This document shows positions 49,910-59,434 of a stretch of DNA of 64,000 nucleotides, piece after piece (the first letter of the stretch is position 1; every line of letters starts with the position of its first letter). The stretch is from a virus. Lineage: Duplodnaviria > Heunggongvirae > Uroviricota > Caudoviricetes. The notes below the pieces were generated by a model, which had not been told where the DNA came from, did no database searches, and saw only the letters and a program-made list of their open reading frames with translations. The DNA lies in IMG/VR virus record IMGVR_UViG_2778261574_000002, one strand, 5' to 3'. The translations under genes and the position numbers were made by a program.

Positions 49910-50947
49910 TTAACCTATTGCTACTGGTTTTAACAAACCAGCATCAAGTAGCTTGCGAGTTAACCACTGCTGGCCTTTACCCGTTAATTGGGGCGTCAGC
50001 CGTATCTGGTAGCCATTTTCATCATCCAGCACCACTTCTTTCACCGTGAAATACCCGGCGTTAATGTACTGCTGGCGCGGTACGTTTTTGCGCGCACCAA
50101 AAGCCATGAGAATGCCGTTCTGGCGCAACCATGAGAAAAGGGCGTTTTGCTTAAGTCCAACGACCTTTGCAAAGTTCCCGATCAGGATTCCATTAGCCGC
50201 TGATACCCGGTCGGCAAAATCGACTTTAGGGGCTGCGGCCACCAGCTGTTGTTCCAACTGCATTTTCTGTTCTGCCAACTCGGCAGCCAGGCGTAGAGCT
50301 TCTGGTAATGTTTGGGGGATCGATGGGGCAGGGGAGTTTGCCTGCTGCAATTCTTCCAGTTTGTCGATCAGCGAACGGCGGACAGCTTTTGATTCGCGCG
50401 CGGCGACTCGCATGGCTTGTTTGAAAGTCATGGTTATGACAAGCATTGATGTTTTGTTCATTTTTTCCACTACACTTTTTGTGTAGTGCTCACCATCAAG
50501 CTCATCGAGTATTTTTTCTATGAATTTGTTGTTCCGAACCTCTGGTTCCCCACATAACTTACGCGCTTCATTGACCATCTTTAACAGTGTCAGGCTGTCG
50601 ATTGTGTCTCCGGTGTTGGGGATGATATTCACGGCTGGTGCTGGCGTAGCTGACGTAACAGGTGCTGTTTTTTCAACATTCAAATTATTACCGGTCATTC
50701 TATGTGCCTCCTTTCTCATTTCTGCTGCCACTGTTGCGTAACGTAGACGTCCTTGTTCAATCAAATAATCCCTGATCTCGGCTATCAGTAGCTTGTTGAT
50801 CACAGCCTTATCTGTTCGGGTATAAAAACGTCTGGTTATCATGAAATAGTTGGCAATTGCGCCGGGGATCTCCCGTGTCGGCATACAGGCAGTGTGCAGG
50901 GCGATCGCTTCGGCTATGTCATTACGGGTGACGAGAGGTTTTTTCAT
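49910..50947 (-). CDS. ant: antirepressor Ant
   Basis: 345 aa; shares the KilA C-terminal domain; start overlaps the icd stop (ATGA). Confidence 0.75.
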   Translation of the reverse strand: MKKPLVTRNDIAEAIALHTACMPTREIPGAIANYFMITRRFYTRTDKAVINKLLIAEIRDYLIEQGRLRYATVAAEMRKEAHRMTGNNLNVEKTAPVTSATPAPAVNIIPNTGDTIDSLTLLKMVNEARKLCGEPEVRNNKFIEKILDELDGEHYTKSVVEKMNKTSMLVITMTFKQAMRVAARESKAVRRSLIDKLEELQQANSPAPSIPQTLPEALRLAAELAEQKMQLEQQLVAAAPKVDFADRVSAANGILIGNFAKVVGLKQNALFSWLRQNGILMAFGARKNVPRQQYINAGYFTVKEVVLDDENGYQIRLTPQLTGKGQQWLTRKLLDAGLLKPVAIG

Positions 50948-51165
50948 AAACCCCCCTGAACGTCGGCAGAGAAGGGGAGGCTCCAGTAACTAAGTGAATT
51001 GCGCGAGTTAGTTGAAAAACGGGCAGTAAAAATGCAGGGGCCGTCAGGCAATTGAGAGCGTGCTTCGTCTTCTGTTGCTGCGATAACGAAGTGATAGTGG
51101 TGTTTTTTACAGGAATAGAAACGCCAGATGAATTCTTGGCGTGCGCAAGGATTGGCATTAACCAT
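50944..51165 (-). CDS. icd: Icd-like small protein
   Basis: 73-aa ORF coupled to ant; size and position match the cell-division-interfering gene of the immunity operon. Confidence 0.55.
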   Translation of the reverse strand: MVNANPCARQEFIWRFYSCKKHHYHFVIAATEDEARSQLPDGPCIFTARFSTNSRNSLSYWSLPFSADVQGGL

Positions 51166-51189: not shown

Positions 51190-51400
51190 AACAACCTGCT
51201 ACCCGCTGTCAAACAGGTGGCAGGACGTGACAGGGTTGACAGACTGGCGATTGTGAAACCAGCAGGCCGAAGCCTCCCCATCACGCCCCACCATAATTTG
51301 GGCGTAACGCGGTTTAACGGACACAAAAATACCGCAATATCGGAAATCTGCGGTTGTCCGCACAATCATTCAGGCTGTCAAACCTGGTCGCAGAATTTGC
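51190..51400 (-). ncRNA. candidate C4-type antisense RNA region
   Basis: Leader between operator and icd with GCTGTCAAAC at 51205-51214 and 51374-51383 and a near-complementary GTTGACAG at 51235-51242. Confidence 0.35.
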
Positions 51401-51479
51401 TACGACGGCGGAACTATAAGCCTGAACGATTAAAAGGTCAATATGATGCGAAAAGATAGCATTCGTGACTTAAAAATAC

Positions 51480-51496
51480 AAATTTATTAGAGCATT
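51480..51496 (-). promoter_or_regulatory. C1 operator-like 17-mer (16/17)
   Basis: AAATTTATTAGAGCATT on +; upstream of the antirepressor operon. Confidence 0.6.
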
Positions 51497-51592
51497 GTTT
51501 GTTTAATAAATGCACAATTGGATCTAATAACCTCTTTTTTTTAAAGGCGAAAATATGTACCCTAAATGAGTTATAAGGCAGGTGAGGTTATA

Positions 51593-52084
51593 ATGAGAAA
51601 ACTATTACTACCGTTATTATTTATGGCTGGGACTGTTAATGCAGCATCAAGCGTAAAGGAGATTTGTACCGATTATACGAAATACCTTGGGCACGTTTAC
51701 GGATTTGCTGTCAGTGAAGACGAATCCATGCGCAAGAAGTTACTGTCAGATATGAAGCGCCTTAAACTTTCTGAAGCGATGGTGCAGCAGGAACTGTATA
51801 AAGTCTCAACCAACGCAAATGCTAAATACCAATATTCTCGCCTATTAAACCCCGATGCAAATGAGATCAATCGAAGCACTTTCGATTATATGGTAAAGGC
51901 ATGCGAAACCGCTCCTGATTTTGCTATCCCTAGCTGGGGTGTGCTGGTGGCGAGCAATGCCGTTAATAAAGAAGATGTTGGAAGAAATGGCATTGACTCA
52001 ATCAGAAATGCCCCAGGAATGCGCCATCAAAACGTGCAGGGTACGCTTGAAGAACGAGCCAGGGGGCCGGGTGTAGCTCCATAA
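51593..52084 (+). CDS. exported protein with Sit-mimicking C-terminal tail
   Basis: 163 aa from MRKLLLPLLFMAGTVNA (signal peptide) after GGTGAGG; C-terminus ..GIDSIRNAPGMRHQNVQGTLEERARGPG. Confidence 0.55.
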   Translation: MRKLLLPLLFMAGTVNAASSVKEICTDYTKYLGHVYGFAVSEDESMRKKLLSDMKRLKLSEAMVQQELYKVSTNANAKYQYSRLLNPDANEINRSTFDYMVKACETAPDFAIPSWGVLVASNAVNKEDVGRNGIDSIRNAPGMRHQNVQGTLEERARGPGVAP

Positions 52085-52172
52085 TTTAATGAATAATATT
52101 AAATTCTCTGGGCATAGTGGATCTAACAATATGGACTATGCCTATAATATCTAAAACAAAAAGGATAAAAAT

Positions 52173-52679
52173 ATGAAATTATATAAGTCATTGTATAGCT
52201 TTTTATTAATGTCCTCTTTTCTGCCATTATCAGCAATGGCAGGTTCTACCGTTTGGACGGTAGGAGGTGAGCAAGGGTGGAGAGAAATCTCTGCAACCAA
52301 TGACGATGGTTATACAATTAACTTTTCTTGTGATGCTGGAGCAAGGGAAGGTTCAGAAGATCATATCGCTGGAAGAAATTTGTATGTAAGCGGAGGAAAA
52401 GAGAATGCCGATTTTTCTACACGCGACACAATATCACGTAAAGCAGATGTAATTACTTTAATTGTTGGCCCGGATAGTTTTAATATTGGCACGCAAAACA
52501 CTGCTCCTAATCGTAGGGAATGGTATTCATTTTGGAAGGCAGTGTCATCTACAAATGAAAAAAACATAGATGTATATATCGGTTCGAGTCGAATCACATC
52601 ATTCACTCTGGATGGTATTTCCAGTATTTATACAGAAGCTAAAAATGACGGGTGTTTAAAACAAGATGACGGTGAATAA
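52173..52679 (+). CDS. exported hypothetical protein
   Basis: 168 aa; signal peptide MKLYKSLYSFLLMSSFLPLSAMA; AT-rich. Confidence 0.55.
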   Translation: MKLYKSLYSFLLMSSFLPLSAMAGSTVWTVGGEQGWREISATNDDGYTINFSCDAGAREGSEDHIAGRNLYVSGGKENADFSTRDTISRKADVITLIVGPDSFNIGTQNTAPNRREWYSFWKAVSSTNEKNIDVYIGSSRITSFTLDGISSIYTEAKNDGCLKQDDGE

Positions 52680-53739
52680 AGTGAAGGATATTAAACACAT
52701 TTCGCTTAACTCTAATAATAAAGCTGAAGGCACTGCCTTTTATGATTATTTAAATGAAATTAAAGGAGTGAGGCATAAAAAGATAAGTGGTTTATTAAAT
52801 TCAGAATATATTTACAAGAGTTTAGTTAAACAGTTTGGAACAGTTAAAAAACAAGAATTAATTAATGATTGTTTTCGAAAAGAACTTGAGTCTTTACCAA
52901 AAGTTACGAGAATTGCACACCAGTTTCGTGAACAAATGGTATTTTTACAGAAACAGTATCAGGCGGCTTTTCCCAGTGATGCAAATGAGCATATTCAAAT
53001 AATTAAAAATCAAGCTGAAATGGCTATGCCGTTACGAAAACACTCAGAAGCCATTAATAAGATAGCTGGCTTAAATAATATGGAGGAGGTATTTAAAGAA
53101 TTACACTCTAATATAAATTACAAAATTAAGATAAGCAAAGATATTAAAGAAATAATAAAGCAGTATAATAAAACAAGAAGTGTATTATTAGAGCAAGTAG
53201 TAGAGCTTGGGCTTGTTACTATCGCGCAGGCTTATGCTAATGATTCTATAAAATCAGCGCATACCGAAAGTGAGCATCAAAACAAAGGATTTAATAAATC
53301 TAGTTCGACGTTTTTTGATTCATTTAAGGCGCTTCCTTCTCCTATTCAGATCTTCCTTCTGTGGATTTTTTATCAAGTGGTGCTTGGCGCTATAACTGAT
53401 TATGCAAAAGAAAAGACATTATCGCAAATTTACAAGATGGAATCATATCTTCTATCTCTAAATGAGGATAAGCCAATATCTAAGCAAAAGCTAACACAAG
53501 AAAATAAAGATATTCAGTGGGAGGATCTTAATAATTTTAGAGCTATAACAGGTGATAACGTAAGGTTGCATGTCGGCCCTTCTTTAAATAGTGAAGTGAT
53601 TGAATGCATTGGCAAAAACACAATTGTTGCTATTTTAGATAAGAAAGATCGTCAATGGCTTTACGTGCAGGTTAAATCAGGGGATGAGTTTATTACTGGT
53701 TGGATTACACGAACATACACAAAGCCTCTTAAGGCTTGA
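52666..53739 (+). CDS. membrane protein with C-terminal SH3b-like domain
   Basis: 357-aa ORF (start uncertain, ATG 52666 or GTG ~52681); hydrophobic IQIFLLWIFYQVVLGAI; C-terminal ..RLHVGPSLNSEVIECIGKNTIVAILDKKDRQWLYVQV... Confidence 0.45.
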   Translation: MTVNKVKDIKHISLNSNNKAEGTAFYDYLNEIKGVRHKKISGLLNSEYIYKSLVKQFGTVKKQELINDCFRKELESLPKVTRIAHQFREQMVFLQKQYQAAFPSDANEHIQIIKNQAEMAMPLRKHSEAINKIAGLNNMEEVFKELHSNINYKIKISKDIKEIIKQYNKTRSVLLEQVVELGLVTIAQAYANDSIKSAHTESEHQNKGFNKSSSTFFDSFKALPSPIQIFLLWIFYQVVLGAITDYAKEKTLSQIYKMESYLLSLNEDKPISKQKLTQENKDIQWEDLNNFRAITGDNVRLHVGPSLNSEVIECIGKNTIVAILDKKDRQWLYVQVKSGDEFITGWITRTYTKPLKA

Positions 53740-53839
53740 ATTTTATCTCCGCATCTTCGGATTGGGTGTTGATGACGATGTGCTACTTGAAGCACTTGAG
53801 TTGTTTTAACGTAGTATCTGAAATGTGTAGACTGACCGG

Positions 53840-56059: not shown

Positions 56060-59000
56060 ATGGAAAGAAAAAACGCCAACATTGACGATGTTATAAGGAC
56101 AGTTGAAACCGCCAGCGCAAAAGAGCTGGAAGAGCTTGCAGGTATCCGGGAAGCTGTTGAAGATTTGAAAGGGGGACGCGTTGCAACTGTTGATCCTGTC
56201 TCTCACAGTGTGTCGGCATTAAATCGCACAATCGAAAATTCCAGGCCAGACTTTGTGGCCAATGCGCCATCAGTGGCCCCTATTGTTGAGGCAATGAAAC
56301 GGCTTAATTTAGGGGACGTTTCTCGTGTAGTTCAGGAGGATGTTGCTCTACAGGAACCGCAGGCCAAATCAACTACGCGAAAGGGTAAAAAACGACGCAA
56401 GAAGGCTATAACAGAAGATGTAAAGGCGCAACGGACCGAAGCAGCCGAACACGCTCGCGAAATGTTCGGTCAAAAAGGCGGTGCGCAAAAAAGCCAAAAC
56501 CAACGCGATGCGCGTGGTCGTTTTATTGGAAAGCCAGGGAGTAAGGCCGCAGCGGAAGATGCCCGTGCTGAACGTGCTGAAAAGGCCAGGCGCAAAGAGG
56601 ATGATGAGCGTCTAAATGCTGAATCAGGTTTATTAAAAAAACTGTCAAAAGTAGCTGAAGGCATAGGTAACCCTTCAGAGACTCGCGCCGTCGATGCGTT
56701 AGGTTATGCCGTTGCTGGTCCATTGTGGGCCGCAGGGAAGGAGCTTGGCGGGATATCAAAAGAAGTTGGTGGATCGCTTAATGGTGCCAGAAAGTCTATT
56801 GCCGATGTGATTCGTGGCAATGACGATAACAGCCGTAGAAAAGGTTTTTTTAGGCGTAAATCGCAAAATAGTGCCGATGTCGTTCAGGTTAACACCCAAA
56901 AACGGACGGTTCAGGAACTTCAGGAGCAGACCAGCGAAATTAAAGAGGGCAATGACAAGATTCTCAGCGCCCTTGATCAGATAGCCAAAAACACCGGGAA
57001 AAAGAAGGGCGGCTTGCTGTCCAAACTATTTAGCCTGTTAGGGAAGGGGGCCGGTGGCGTCGCGTCGTTGTTAATGGGGCGTGGCATGCTGAAAAAAGCT
57101 GGAGCACTCGCTTTTGGCGCTCTGGGGGCAAAGAAACTTGTAGGAATGCTACGCGGTGGTGGCAAGAAGACTCTCGCCCATGAAGGCGGAGATTTGGCTG
57201 CCCGGGCAGCAGGTAAACTTGGATTAAAGGCAGTTGGTAAAGGGGCGTTACGCGCAATTCCCCTAGTCGGCACAGTGGCTGGAGGTATTTATGATGCGGT
57301 AACCGGTTGGAATGATACAGAAGCGCAACGTCGAGCGTTTGGGCTTAAATCAGGACAAGATCCATCATTCCAGCAAAAAGCCGCTTATACGTTAGCCAAT
57401 GTTCTTGATTTGGGGGGACTGGTATCTGGTATTAGCAGTGCTATTGGTGATGTTCTCAAATCACTTGGATTTGAGGATATCGGCAATATGTTGCAATCAT
57501 TTTCGACGGAAAGTATTGCCCAGGCCATTGATAGCGGGGTTACCAACTTAGAAACATATATTTCTAACCTTGGCGACACCATTTCTACCAAGTTCGATGA
57601 TTACACAGCAAAGATTGGTGATGCTGTTTCAGCATGGTTTAGCGATACATCTAATAAGTTGCTTGAAAAGCTGGATGCCATAAAAGACTTCTTTACTGTC
57701 GATAACCTGAAACAGGTTTTCAGTGATGCAATTGATAGTGTAATTGATTTCATTAAGAACCCAGGGAAACACATTAAAGAGGCGGCTGGTAATATTTGGG
57801 ATGGGGTTAAAAATTTACCAGGTAAAGCATTAGATGCAGCGGTTGATGCCGTTAAAAATACCCCTGCGGCAATGATTGTATCAAAAATACCCAATCCGAT
57901 CGGCGAGGCTAATGCGAAAGAAATCACTCCAGAGTTAAAAGTTCCGGTTAATAGCCACCAGGGGACATCTGATTCTAAAACTGAATACGATGCCAAACAG
58001 ACTAATATTGCTGCCCGCGTGATAAATGCGGCCCTGGATATGGTGAAAGATAGCAATAAAACAGTTAAAGAAACTGCTAATCAGATTATCAATGCAAATA
58101 CCGTAGATACAGGAAATAAAGCAGCACAAACAATTGATGCTGCCTTGGGCCAGTCTGCTACAGGCAAGGAGGAAGCATTAAGTGCATATGAGATAGATAA
58201 ACGTCGATTTAACAATGGCAAGGATGTTTCTTTGCCAAAATTAAATGCTGCCGGATACCAATGGATTTCTGACAATGCCGATTATTTTGATGAGCTTGAA
58301 CGTAAGTATGGGCTTGAAAAAGGGATTCTGTCAGCAGTTGCATCCGCAGAGTCTAGTGCAGGCCAGAGAACTGGAAATCCAGTAGACAAAAACGGGAACA
58401 AACTTTCATCTGCCCTTGGGGCTTTTCAGATCACTAAAGGTACAAGGGAGGATCTTGGACTCAGCGATGCTGATGCCATGGATACACGAAAAGCAGCTGA
58501 TGGTGCCGCCAGATACCTAAGTATGCTGATGAACCGTTATAACGGTGATCAGGGTCGTGCAATAGCTGCCTATCATGCTGGTATGGGGCATGTTGATAAG
58601 GGGAGAGTAGTCGCAGGTACCGGCGAATATGTTACTCGTGTCAGAGGGTATCAGCAGATGCTCAATAATGGTGCCGTTTATGGCTCTAAGGTAGATCATA
58701 GCGCACCAGCAATTTACGAAAAGATACCTGATAACGCTGTTATCGATCAGTCTACTGGCCTGGCGTTTACCCCTGGTGATAGCCCGTTTGAGAAAGGCGG
58801 TCTGGTAGACAAAATTGGCAATGCTGTTGGCGTTAACGATCTGGTCAACAAATTCATGAATGGCCGGGGTATGCGTCGGGAAGTCGTTCAGGGAACGCTC
58901 GAAGAACGTGCACGAGGGAAGGGGACCGCAACAGCAGCTGGCAATGTGTATGTTGATACTCCTATGCCAGTTGAAGAGGCGCGTCCGGTGGCCAGCAACT

Positions 59001-59434
59001 CAAGTTACTTTGACCAACTCGGCGCACAAATGGGGATTGATGGACTATTCGATAAACTCCGCAACTCGCCGGGGATGCGGAAAAATAATGCGCCTGAACC
59101 AGCCTCCACGTACCAGGTGACGACTGCCGCCAACGATTTGCAGCAACCAACCGGTCGTATGCAGATAGACGGACAGGTTATTAGTGACCTTGGCGGCTCC
59201 GGTGCCAAGCCGACAATGCAGTTGGCTGATAATACCGTTTCACTTGATGGTGAAACGAAGCGGCTGTTTGCGCAGATGACCTCATTGCTTGCCAGGATTG
59301 AAGAGCACACTAAAGACTCGGCGAAAGGCCAGGGAACTGTCGTAAAGGTCAGCACGCCTCAACCGGGCGTTATGCGCACGGTGCCACTGTCAATTGATGA
59401 TCCGTTGATGAATGACTACGCGAGAGTTGATTGA
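56060..59434 (+). CDS. sit: tape-measure-like injection protein with lytic transglycosylase domain (Sit-like)
   Basis: 1124 aa; Ala/Gly/Lys-rich helical repeats; SLT-type segment ..AESSAGQ..GAFQIT..AYHAGMG. Confidence 0.85.
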   Translation: MERKNANIDDVIRTVETASAKELEELAGIREAVEDLKGGRVATVDPVSHSVSALNRTIENSRPDFVANAPSVAPIVEAMKRLNLGDVSRVVQEDVALQEPQAKSTTRKGKKRRKKAITEDVKAQRTEAAEHAREMFGQKGGAQKSQNQRDARGRFIGKPGSKAAAEDARAERAEKARRKEDDERLNAESGLLKKLSKVAEGIGNPSETRAVDALGYAVAGPLWAAGKELGGISKEVGGSLNGARKSIADVIRGNDDNSRRKGFFRRKSQNSADVVQVNTQKRTVQELQEQTSEIKEGNDKILSALDQIAKNTGKKKGGLLSKLFSLLGKGAGGVASLLMGRGMLKKAGALAFGALGAKKLVGMLRGGGKKTLAHEGGDLAARAAGKLGLKAVGKGALRAIPLVGTVAGGIYDAVTGWNDTEAQRRAFGLKSGQDPSFQQKAAYTLANVLDLGGLVSGISSAIGDVLKSLGFEDIGNMLQSFSTESIAQAIDSGVTNLETYISNLGDTISTKFDDYTAKIGDAVSAWFSDTSNKLLEKLDAIKDFFTVDNLKQVFSDAIDSVIDFIKNPGKHIKEAAGNIWDGVKNLPGKALDAAVDAVKNTPAAMIVSKIPNPIGEANAKEITPELKVPVNSHQGTSDSKTEYDAKQTNIAARVINAALDMVKDSNKTVKETANQIINANTVDTGNKAAQTIDAALGQSATGKEEALSAYEIDKRRFNNGKDVSLPKLNAAGYQWISDNADYFDELERKYGLEKGILSAVASAESSAGQRTGNPVDKNGNKLSSALGAFQITKGTREDLGLSDADAMDTRKAADGAARYLSMLMNRYNGDQGRAIAAYHAGMGHVDKGRVVAGTGEYVTRVRGYQQMLNNGAVYGSKVDHSAPAIYEKIPDNAVIDQSTGLAFTPGDSPFEKGGLVDKIGNAVGVNDLVNKFMNGRGMRREVVQGTLEERARGKGTATAAGNVYVDTPMPVEEARPVASNSSYFDQLGAQMGIDGLFDKLRNSPGMRKNNAPEPASTYQVTTAANDLQQPTGRMQIDGQVISDLGGSGAKPTMQLADNTVSLDGETKRLFAQMTSLLARIEEHTKDSAKGQGTVVKVSTPQPGVMRTVPLSIDDPLMNDYARVD

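Follow-up and report, generated by a model that had tools for sequence, protein, structure and literature searches.

An exported SimA-family protein of a P1-like phage-plasmid carries a module homologous to the tape-measure transglycosylase Sit and may act in superinfection exclusion

The first gene of the sim locus in a P1-like phage-plasmid encodes a protein whose C-terminal tail resembles a segment of Sit, the tape-measure protein and structural injection transglycosylase of the same element. The similarity is significant by four independent tests (BLASTP, shuffled sequences, PHROG profiles and hhalign), and from the sequences the homology of the module in the two proteins is very probably genuine. 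We tentatively propose, with somewhat less than even confidence, that the product may be a periplasmic exclusion protein that uses a mimic of the tape measure against Sit during DNA injection. An earlier note on this DNA had suggested that the tail, as a periplasmic decoy of a Sit interaction motif, could plausibly block injection by a related phage; overall, that interpretation is partly supported by the results presented here.

P1 has long been a classic among model phages and is a tool in wide use, and the Enterobacteriaceae commonly harbour P1-like phage-plasmids. The window (the whole stretch of DNA analysed, 64,000 nucleotides) is a P1-like phage-plasmid, and a megablast search with its 51400–53800 region matched Punavirus (P1-like) phages and phage-plasmids. 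Comparison of the ORF map of the window with the annotated records of P1 and vB_EcoM-Ro157c2YLVW placed the 51593–52084 ORF as the first gene of the sim locus, between c4/icd/ant on the minus strand and pmgC-tub-pmgB-sit on the plus strand. In the annotated P1 record the slot between c4-icd-ant and pmgC is filled by simA-simB-simC, the superimmunity locus. The synteny around the SimA-family gene is the same in Salmonella- and Klebsiella-type elements as in the window, and the sim locus is among eight highly variable regions in a survey of P1-like phage-plasmids (PMC9603915). The features of this part of the window are as follows.

49910–51165, minus strand: icd and ant1
51593–52084, plus strand: full-length SimA-family gene, 163 aa from MRKLLL (ORF list and sequence)
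51593–51643, plus strand: Sec-type signal peptide MRKLLLPLLFMAGTVNA, predicted to be cleaved between VNA and AS
51647–51976, plus strand: all-helical domain (aa 19–128) with invariant C25 and C104, an orphan fold
51956–52078, plus strand: Sit-like module (aa 122–162, NAVNKEDVGRNGIDSIRNAPGMRHQNVQGTLEERARGPGVA), from BLASTP, shuffles, PHROG cross-matches and hhalign
52072–52073, no strand: mosaic junction, where DNA similarity to a 215-aa variant ends three codons before the stop
52173–52679, plus strand: ORF2, an exported 168-aa protein (phrog_3429), with counterparts in other lineages labelled PF27224, YfjT-like
52666–53739, plus strand: ORF3, followed on the same strand by pmgC, tub, pmgB and sit (56060–59434)

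A GGTGAGG ribosome-binding site lies seven bases 5' of the ATG at 51593, and another ATG is present upstream at 51566. A scan for promoters and terminators gave no promoter above background. The sequence AAATTTATTAGAGCATT (51480–51496) fits the C1 operator consensus at 16 of 17 positions, and it is the counterpart of the annotated P1 C1 operator Oc4 (Op51). Since this Oc4-like site has the divergent c4 promoters on one side and the predicted PsimA on the other, C1 might influence transcription of the sim locus. An 8-bp inverted repeat (52111–52142; GGCATAGT and ACTATGCC around a 16-nt loop), read from the sequence, is found directly 3' of the 51593–52084 stop, in the 88-nt gap upstream of ORF2.

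The 51593–52084 ORF encodes a full-length SimA-family protein of the P1-like sim locus, and its product matches the phrog_3933 profile over residues 1–162 (E = 1.9e-113). P1 SimA (MSYKAGEVIMRKLLLPLLFMAGTVNAASSVKEICTDYTKYLGHVYAFAINDY) is identical to the N-terminus of the ORF (about its first 45 residues, or up to about residue 36 of the MRKLLL form) and then stops; at the DNA level, identity to the P1 simA region is 95.8% over the first 333 nt of the 51400–53800 query. Because P1 SimA corresponds to the N-terminus of the family only and then ends, P1 simA is a truncated stub, and its 52-aa product has neither the helical domain nor the Sit-like module. The P1 gene is annotated 'putative superimmunity accessory function' (52 aa; NC_005856 47912–48070, equivalent to window 51566–51730). 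As this stub is non-essential, the SimA family is dispensable for the phage. SimA-family proteins are 163–246 aa long. Plasmids with a full-length homolog numbered 126, those with the stub were about as numerous, and a large protein collection held 28 further clusters of the family, some labelled 'simA domain protein'.

The family alignment divides into four parts, the signal peptide, the domain, an N-x-x-G-M-R-x-Q core and the second half of the module, after which the C-terminus is variable: some members have a coiled-coil-like extension, some a Cys-pair type and some no extension at all. Domain and module always occur together in cis. The window copy is a short form, truncated directly after the Sit-like module: the megablast match to vB_EcoM-Ro157c2YLVW spans query positions 1–673 (window 51400–52072), and the 215-aa homolog of that phage continues past the junction with RGPGTNSPMGNLSPEEL. 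The description of the module as a C-terminal tail in the earlier note thus holds for the truncated 163-aa variant alone; in most family members the module is internal.

The signal peptide has a basic n-region, a hydrophobic core and an AxA-like site, features read from the sequence and not from a dedicated predictor. It is of typical Sec type (MRKLLLPLLFMAGTVNA followed by AS) and conserved family-wide, with N16, A17 and S19 invariant in 21 homologs, in agreement with the earlier claim that the product is exported. Together with the two invariant cysteines, the conserved signal peptide suggests that the protein is located in the envelope. AlphaFold2 gave a confident all-helical domain at aa 19–128 (pLDDT 92–97), with aa 1–15 at pLDDT <50. 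Structure comparison returned no informative structural relative of the helical domain, and a search of solved structures by sequence returned none for Sit and a chance match only for the SimA family. PADLOC and NCBIfam gave no match for the 51593–52084 product, PADLOC recognised no sim-locus protein of the window, and no family of known exclusion function in Pfam, PHROG, PADLOC or NCBIfam was matched by the ORF. A hit to PF14566 (PTP-like phytase) scored 25.4 bits against a threshold of 27, and as no phosphatase signature (HCxxGxxR) was noticed it was treated as spurious.

BLASTP aligned ORF aa 122–162 with Sit aa 921–957 (21 of 41 residues identical, E = 8e-8) and ORF aa 134–147 with Sit aa 997–1010 (8 of 14 identical, E = 0.006), so that the tail matches Sit in both of the places where the earlier note had seen a resemblance. 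The Smith-Waterman score of ORF against Sit was 90, compared with a mean of 37.5 (sd 5.0) for shuffled ORFs, none of 1000 of which reached 90; for the tail alone the score was 85 against 28.6 (sd 3.8), a value reached by none of 2000 shuffles. Profile comparisons agreed in both directions: the ORF matched the Sit PHROG (phrog_2533) at profile positions 927–963 (E = 1.6e-5), and Sit matched the PHROG of the ORF (phrog_3933) at positions 129–169 (E = 4.4e-6). An hhalign comparison of the SimA-family and Sit-family alignments gave a probability of 94.5% (E = 7.6e-8, 31 columns).

When more divergent family members are aligned, the shared region extends over about 55 aa, from K-G-G-L-V-D-K-I-G to M-G-N-V. 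The window module is closest to a Klebsiella-type Sit (64.9% over 37 aa), closer than to its own Sit. The 51593–52084 product is not itself a Sit-family protein, as 31–41 columns align and there is no SLT domain, and it alone is Sit-like among the sim-locus proteins compared (ORF2, ORF3, P1 SimB and SimC, and ORF2 homologs). AlphaFold2 gave no confident structure for the module in either the ORF product, where it is predicted to be flexible (pLDDT 54–60), or Sit; such predicted flexibility in both proteins would be as expected for a linear interaction motif. The corresponding features of Sit are listed below.

56060–59434, plus strand: sit, tape-measure/structural injection transglycosylase, 1124 aa (full-length phrog_2533, Pfam SLT, syntenic P1 annotation)
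58283–58600, plus strand: SLT lytic transglycosylase domain, Sit aa 742–847 (PF01464, E = 1.8e-14; confident in AlphaFold2)
58730–58954, plus strand: Sit conservation island, aa 891–965, about 75 aa, containing the module
58820–58930, plus strand: module copy 1, Sit aa 921–957, collinear with the ORF tail
59012–59089, plus strand: module copy 2, Sit aa 985–1010 (DQLGAQMGIDGLFDKLRNSPGMRKNN), a partial tandem duplicate in a P1-lineage insertion

In an alignment of six Sit lineages, overall 49–57% identical to the window Sit, sliding identity is 0.54–0.84 in the island and 0–0.38 in its flanks, and conservation of the island exceeds that of the SLT domain (aa 742–847). Among 22 Sit homologs, conservation is at least 90% at most island positions. 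By these alignments the Sit module appears to be part of the most conserved segment of Sit, just downstream of the transglycosylase domain. In a model of Sit aa 701–1124, AlphaFold2 was confident for the SLT domain and gave pLDDT <55 for the island and the C-terminus; Sit is unresolved even in the 2026 cryo-EM structure of P1 (PMC12810830). When a 139-aa piece of Sit was run in a word-indexed protein search, the matches were fragments only. Around the SLT domain (window ~58160–58720, Sit aa ~700–890), E. coli P1-like elements have one of two old alleles, which share ~71% identity over the C-terminal 424 aa; the window type is the rarer, and the other allele has 'GEIYTPGAGAQGGAQYGVRG'.

The two Sit segments named in the earlier note proved to be of different standing. 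One is the conserved module; the other, copy 2, is a partial duplicate of it (Smith-Waterman score 52 against the first half of copy 1, compared with 21 ± 3.9 in shuffles) within a ~43-aa insertion that is found only in the E. coli P1 lineage and is absent from five divergent Sit lineages. The ORF tail is collinear with the first segment, and its first half resembles copy 2 more closely. Among E. coli P1-like elements copy 2 is dimorphic (FDKLRNSPGMRKNNAPEP or YDKLINARGMRSNNSPQP), with local pS ~0.6 and pN 0.15.

When 1.84 billion (1.84e9) representative proteins were scanned with a profile of the module, it turned up in Sit proteins, SimA-family proteins and fragments of both, and nowhere else bar one unrelated repetitive protein. 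In all of the contexts recovered, the element was P1-like and its genes included a Sit with the module. Nearly every aligned in-frame homolog keeps the N-x-x-G-M-R core, at identities as low as 52%, and so does a Pantoea member; the module as such is retained in lineages down to ~40% identity, Pantoea included. There, a distant pair of Sit and SimA-family proteins is encoded on a single 94-kb element, with the modules NAPGMRHQVATGSMADRAYG in Sit (from a ~98%-identical cluster representative) and NAPGMRHQAVKGSMAERARG in the SimA-family protein. The second half, V-x-G-T-L-E-x-R-A-R-G-x-G, is present in roughly half of the aligned SimA-family members, and about a third (7 of 21) have only the first half, up to GMRxQ.

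The shared peptide is under purifying selection comparable to that on the folded domain. Between lineages, pN is 0.17–0.32 for the module and 0.22–0.45 for the domain, with pS saturated (0.75–1.0); in copy 1 of E. coli P1-like Sit alleles, pN = 0 and pS is 0.07–0.29. Over 24 aligned codons of ORF and Sit, 16 residues and 48 of 72 nucleotides are identical (27 of 45 nucleotides against copy 2), and since just 7 of the codons are the same, the module is not a recent copy. The low pN and saturated pS likewise uphold the earlier argument, drawn from the many synonymous differences, that the peptide has been kept by selection.

Co-variation between the module and the resident Sit was not significant (permutation p = 0.08–0.12 for five lineages over 28 aa and eight lineages over the first 15 aa, one row of the eight-lineage set being out of register by one residue). 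Among E. coli elements the Sit copy-2 alleles occur with all Sim states and assort fairly freely. A rare 'type B' SimA protein (QFLNARGMRTQN) occurs with the matching INARGMRS allele of Sit copy 2 (allele B) in 4 of 5 elements. This association is weak (4/5 against 7/30, Fisher p = 0.026), with linkage and relatedness uncontrolled.

Loci spanning the whole sim region fall into cassettes. The full-length SimA gene is followed by an ORF2-family gene (phrog_3429/PF27224) in 38 of 40 loci, and ORF2 homologs adjoin the SimA-family gene in the E. coli, Salmonella and Klebsiella lineages despite 29–52% identity; such conservation of the neighbour at low identity suggests that the two may form a two-gene module. 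The stub is followed by simB-simC in 18 of 18 loci, which suggests that a cassette replacement cut the ancestral simA gene. Two loci (e.g. NZ_CP027575.1 43297–44079) have a full-length SimA-family gene and a SimC-like gene without ORF2, so the two kinds of cassette are not strictly exclusive. ORF3 (52666–53739, 357 aa, phrog_7086) is present in 14 of the 40 loci with a full-length SimA gene; it has a C-terminal bacterial SH3_3 domain (E = 3e-6) and an apparent hydrophobic segment, IQIFLLWIFYQVVLGAI, read from the sequence. Short contigs with the E. coli P1-like version of the SimA-family gene have been assigned to a 'Candidatus Paenibacillus intestinavium' MAG and to a Bacillota MAG; contamination during binning is the most likely reason.

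Studies from 1989–90 reportedly attributed the exclusion activity of P1 to SimC. In the P1 record SimC is annotated as the exclusion protein. BLASTP of SimC and SimB against the sim-locus ORFs of the window gave no match at E ≤ 1e-3, tblastn found no SimC in the window, and simB is absent as well.

These observations can be assembled into a possible mechanism. A small helical domain and a flexible Sit-homologous module of ~40 aa are combined in a Sec-exported, probably periplasmic protein. As a P1-like phage injects, Sit would be expelled into the periplasm, where the resident mimic may engage the partner of the Sit module, which could be a host factor in the envelope or else another part of Sit or of its oligomer. 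With penetration of the envelope or the opening of a channel disturbed, DNA entry would fail, resulting in superinfection exclusion. Because Sit is assembled into tails in the cytoplasm and the SimA-family protein is Sec-exported, the two would meet only in the envelope, at injection. From sequence we infer that the SimA-family protein may be periplasmic and expressed in the lysogen, and that it may take part in such an interaction and confer an exclusion phenotype.

Exclusion is the best-supported reading on the grounds of the locus, selection, restricted distribution and the logic of export, and the position of the gene in the sim locus, a recognised variable region, fits it. Against it stand the attribution of P1 exclusion activity to SimC, which is unrelated and absent from the window, the non-essential stub that is P1 simA, and the lack of significant co-variation with the resident Sit; so do the 7 of 21 members with the first half of the module only, the low-confidence structure of the module, and a domain without an informative relative. 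As a true decoy, the module would titrate a host periplasmic or inner-membrane factor that is needed, via Sit aa 891–965, to open the inner membrane; we hold this particular form to be rather unlikely.

The module might alternatively be an address, a common element that directs the two proteins to one and the same site or ligand in the envelope, such as peptidoglycan or a protein of the inner membrane, with the N-terminal domain as effector, for example by inhibiting the Sit transglycosylase or channel formation. No other part of the protein is as confidently folded or as invariant as the domain, and the module is flexible; loss of the second half of the module is tolerated with the domain and the GMR core kept; and a conserved third-party ligand would be in keeping with the lack of co-variation between module and resident Sit. 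However, no fold or family match points to an inhibitor and no host protein has the module, so that we place this model as a whole on the unlikely side, although sequence alone does not separate it from the decoy model. A related possibility makes Sit itself the target: the helical domain would bind the Sit module, with its own copy as an intramolecular placeholder that is displaced by incoming Sit, which would then be captured directly. The constant linkage of domain and module would suit such a pseudo-ligand, as would a module that is near-consensus for the Sit segment, with the window copy sharing more with a Klebsiella-type Sit (64.9% over 37 aa) than with the Sit of its own element. AlphaFold2 did not dock the tail confidently onto the domain (pLDDT 54–60), however, and no co-variation was detected, which leaves the idea quite improbable.

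Two further explanations dispense with exclusion. The SimA family and ORF2 could be envelope accessories in cell-wall remodelling, lysis control or host fitness, the Sit-like module reflecting a shared biochemical property such as peptidoglycan contact beside the transglycosylase. This would account for a locus with several exported proteins, one with an SH3_3 domain and none recognised by PADLOC, and for ORF2 as a conserved partner. Such a role, taken whole, is nonetheless unlikely: the module is confined to P1-like Sit and the SimA family, the gene lies at a locus genetically defined as superimmunity, and for an exported protein the one occasion to meet Sit is an incoming infection. The module could also be a relic of old recombination between sit and the sim locus, without present function. 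The sim locus is highly mosaic, with a recombination junction at 52072, and P1 itself has the stub only; but purifying selection on the module comparable to that on the folded domain, at saturated synonymous sites, its retention to ~40% identity including Pantoea, and a truncation in the window that spares it make a relic very improbable.

The gene annotated as simA in P1 proves to be the stub of a larger, widespread family, and a ~75-aa island of Sit is marked as functionally critical. Mimicry of a tape measure by an exported protein would add a new means by which prophages block injection, and if the proposed mechanism is correct a peptide of 30–40 aa would be a ready probe for the partner of Sit. 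If the decoy form is true, the module would be bait for the long-missing post-adsorption host requirement of P1 DNA entry, and, among exclusion proteins, this would be the first on record that is made from part of the very injected protein it blocks. In the literature searched (the 2004 P1 genome paper being outside it), we found no paper on a resemblance of SimA to Sit or on a copied tape-measure segment.

Among known systems, the sim locus of P1 is the nearest in position. SimC is a processed periplasmic exclusion protein, and the window ORF shares with this locus its slot, the SimA N-terminus and, as in all of the P1 products, a signal peptide. The P1 locus differs in that its SimA stub has neither domain nor module and in that the window has no simB or simC; the window ORF is not homologous to SimC. 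Ltp of TP-J34, the Sie2009 lipoproteins and HK97 gp15 are prophage envelope proteins that block DNA entry, with escape mutations or interactions that map to the tape measure. Unlike the window protein, they are siphophage proteins with other folds and anchors, and to our knowledge none of them has been reported to contain a tape-measure-derived segment. No homology of the ORF to known tape-measure-acting exclusion proteins (T4 Imm, Ltp, HK97 gp15) was found in Pfam, PHROG, PADLOC or NCBIfam.

T4 Spackle (Sp), which inhibits the gp5 tail lysozyme in the periplasm, is small, exported, helical and disulfide-containing. The window protein is likewise a small exported helical protein, and Spackle neutralises the cell-wall-degrading part of the incoming tail. 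Spackle works, however, through a folded interface, without mimicry of the enzyme-bearing protein, and fold comparison gave no match to a Spackle-like fold in the window ORF. T4 Imm binds gp29, the tape-measure protein of T4 (bioRxiv 10.64898/2026.03.06.709160). Unlike the window protein, Imm is polytopic in the inner membrane, and what it binds on the tape measure is a helical bundle; it has no sequence relation to the window protein and copies no tape-measure segment. Like the putative envelope protein of the window, Imm is encoded by a phage with a contractile tail; it is proposed to act on the tape measure and thereby to halt translocation of the genome. It is a recent precedent for tape-measure-directed exclusion in a myophage.
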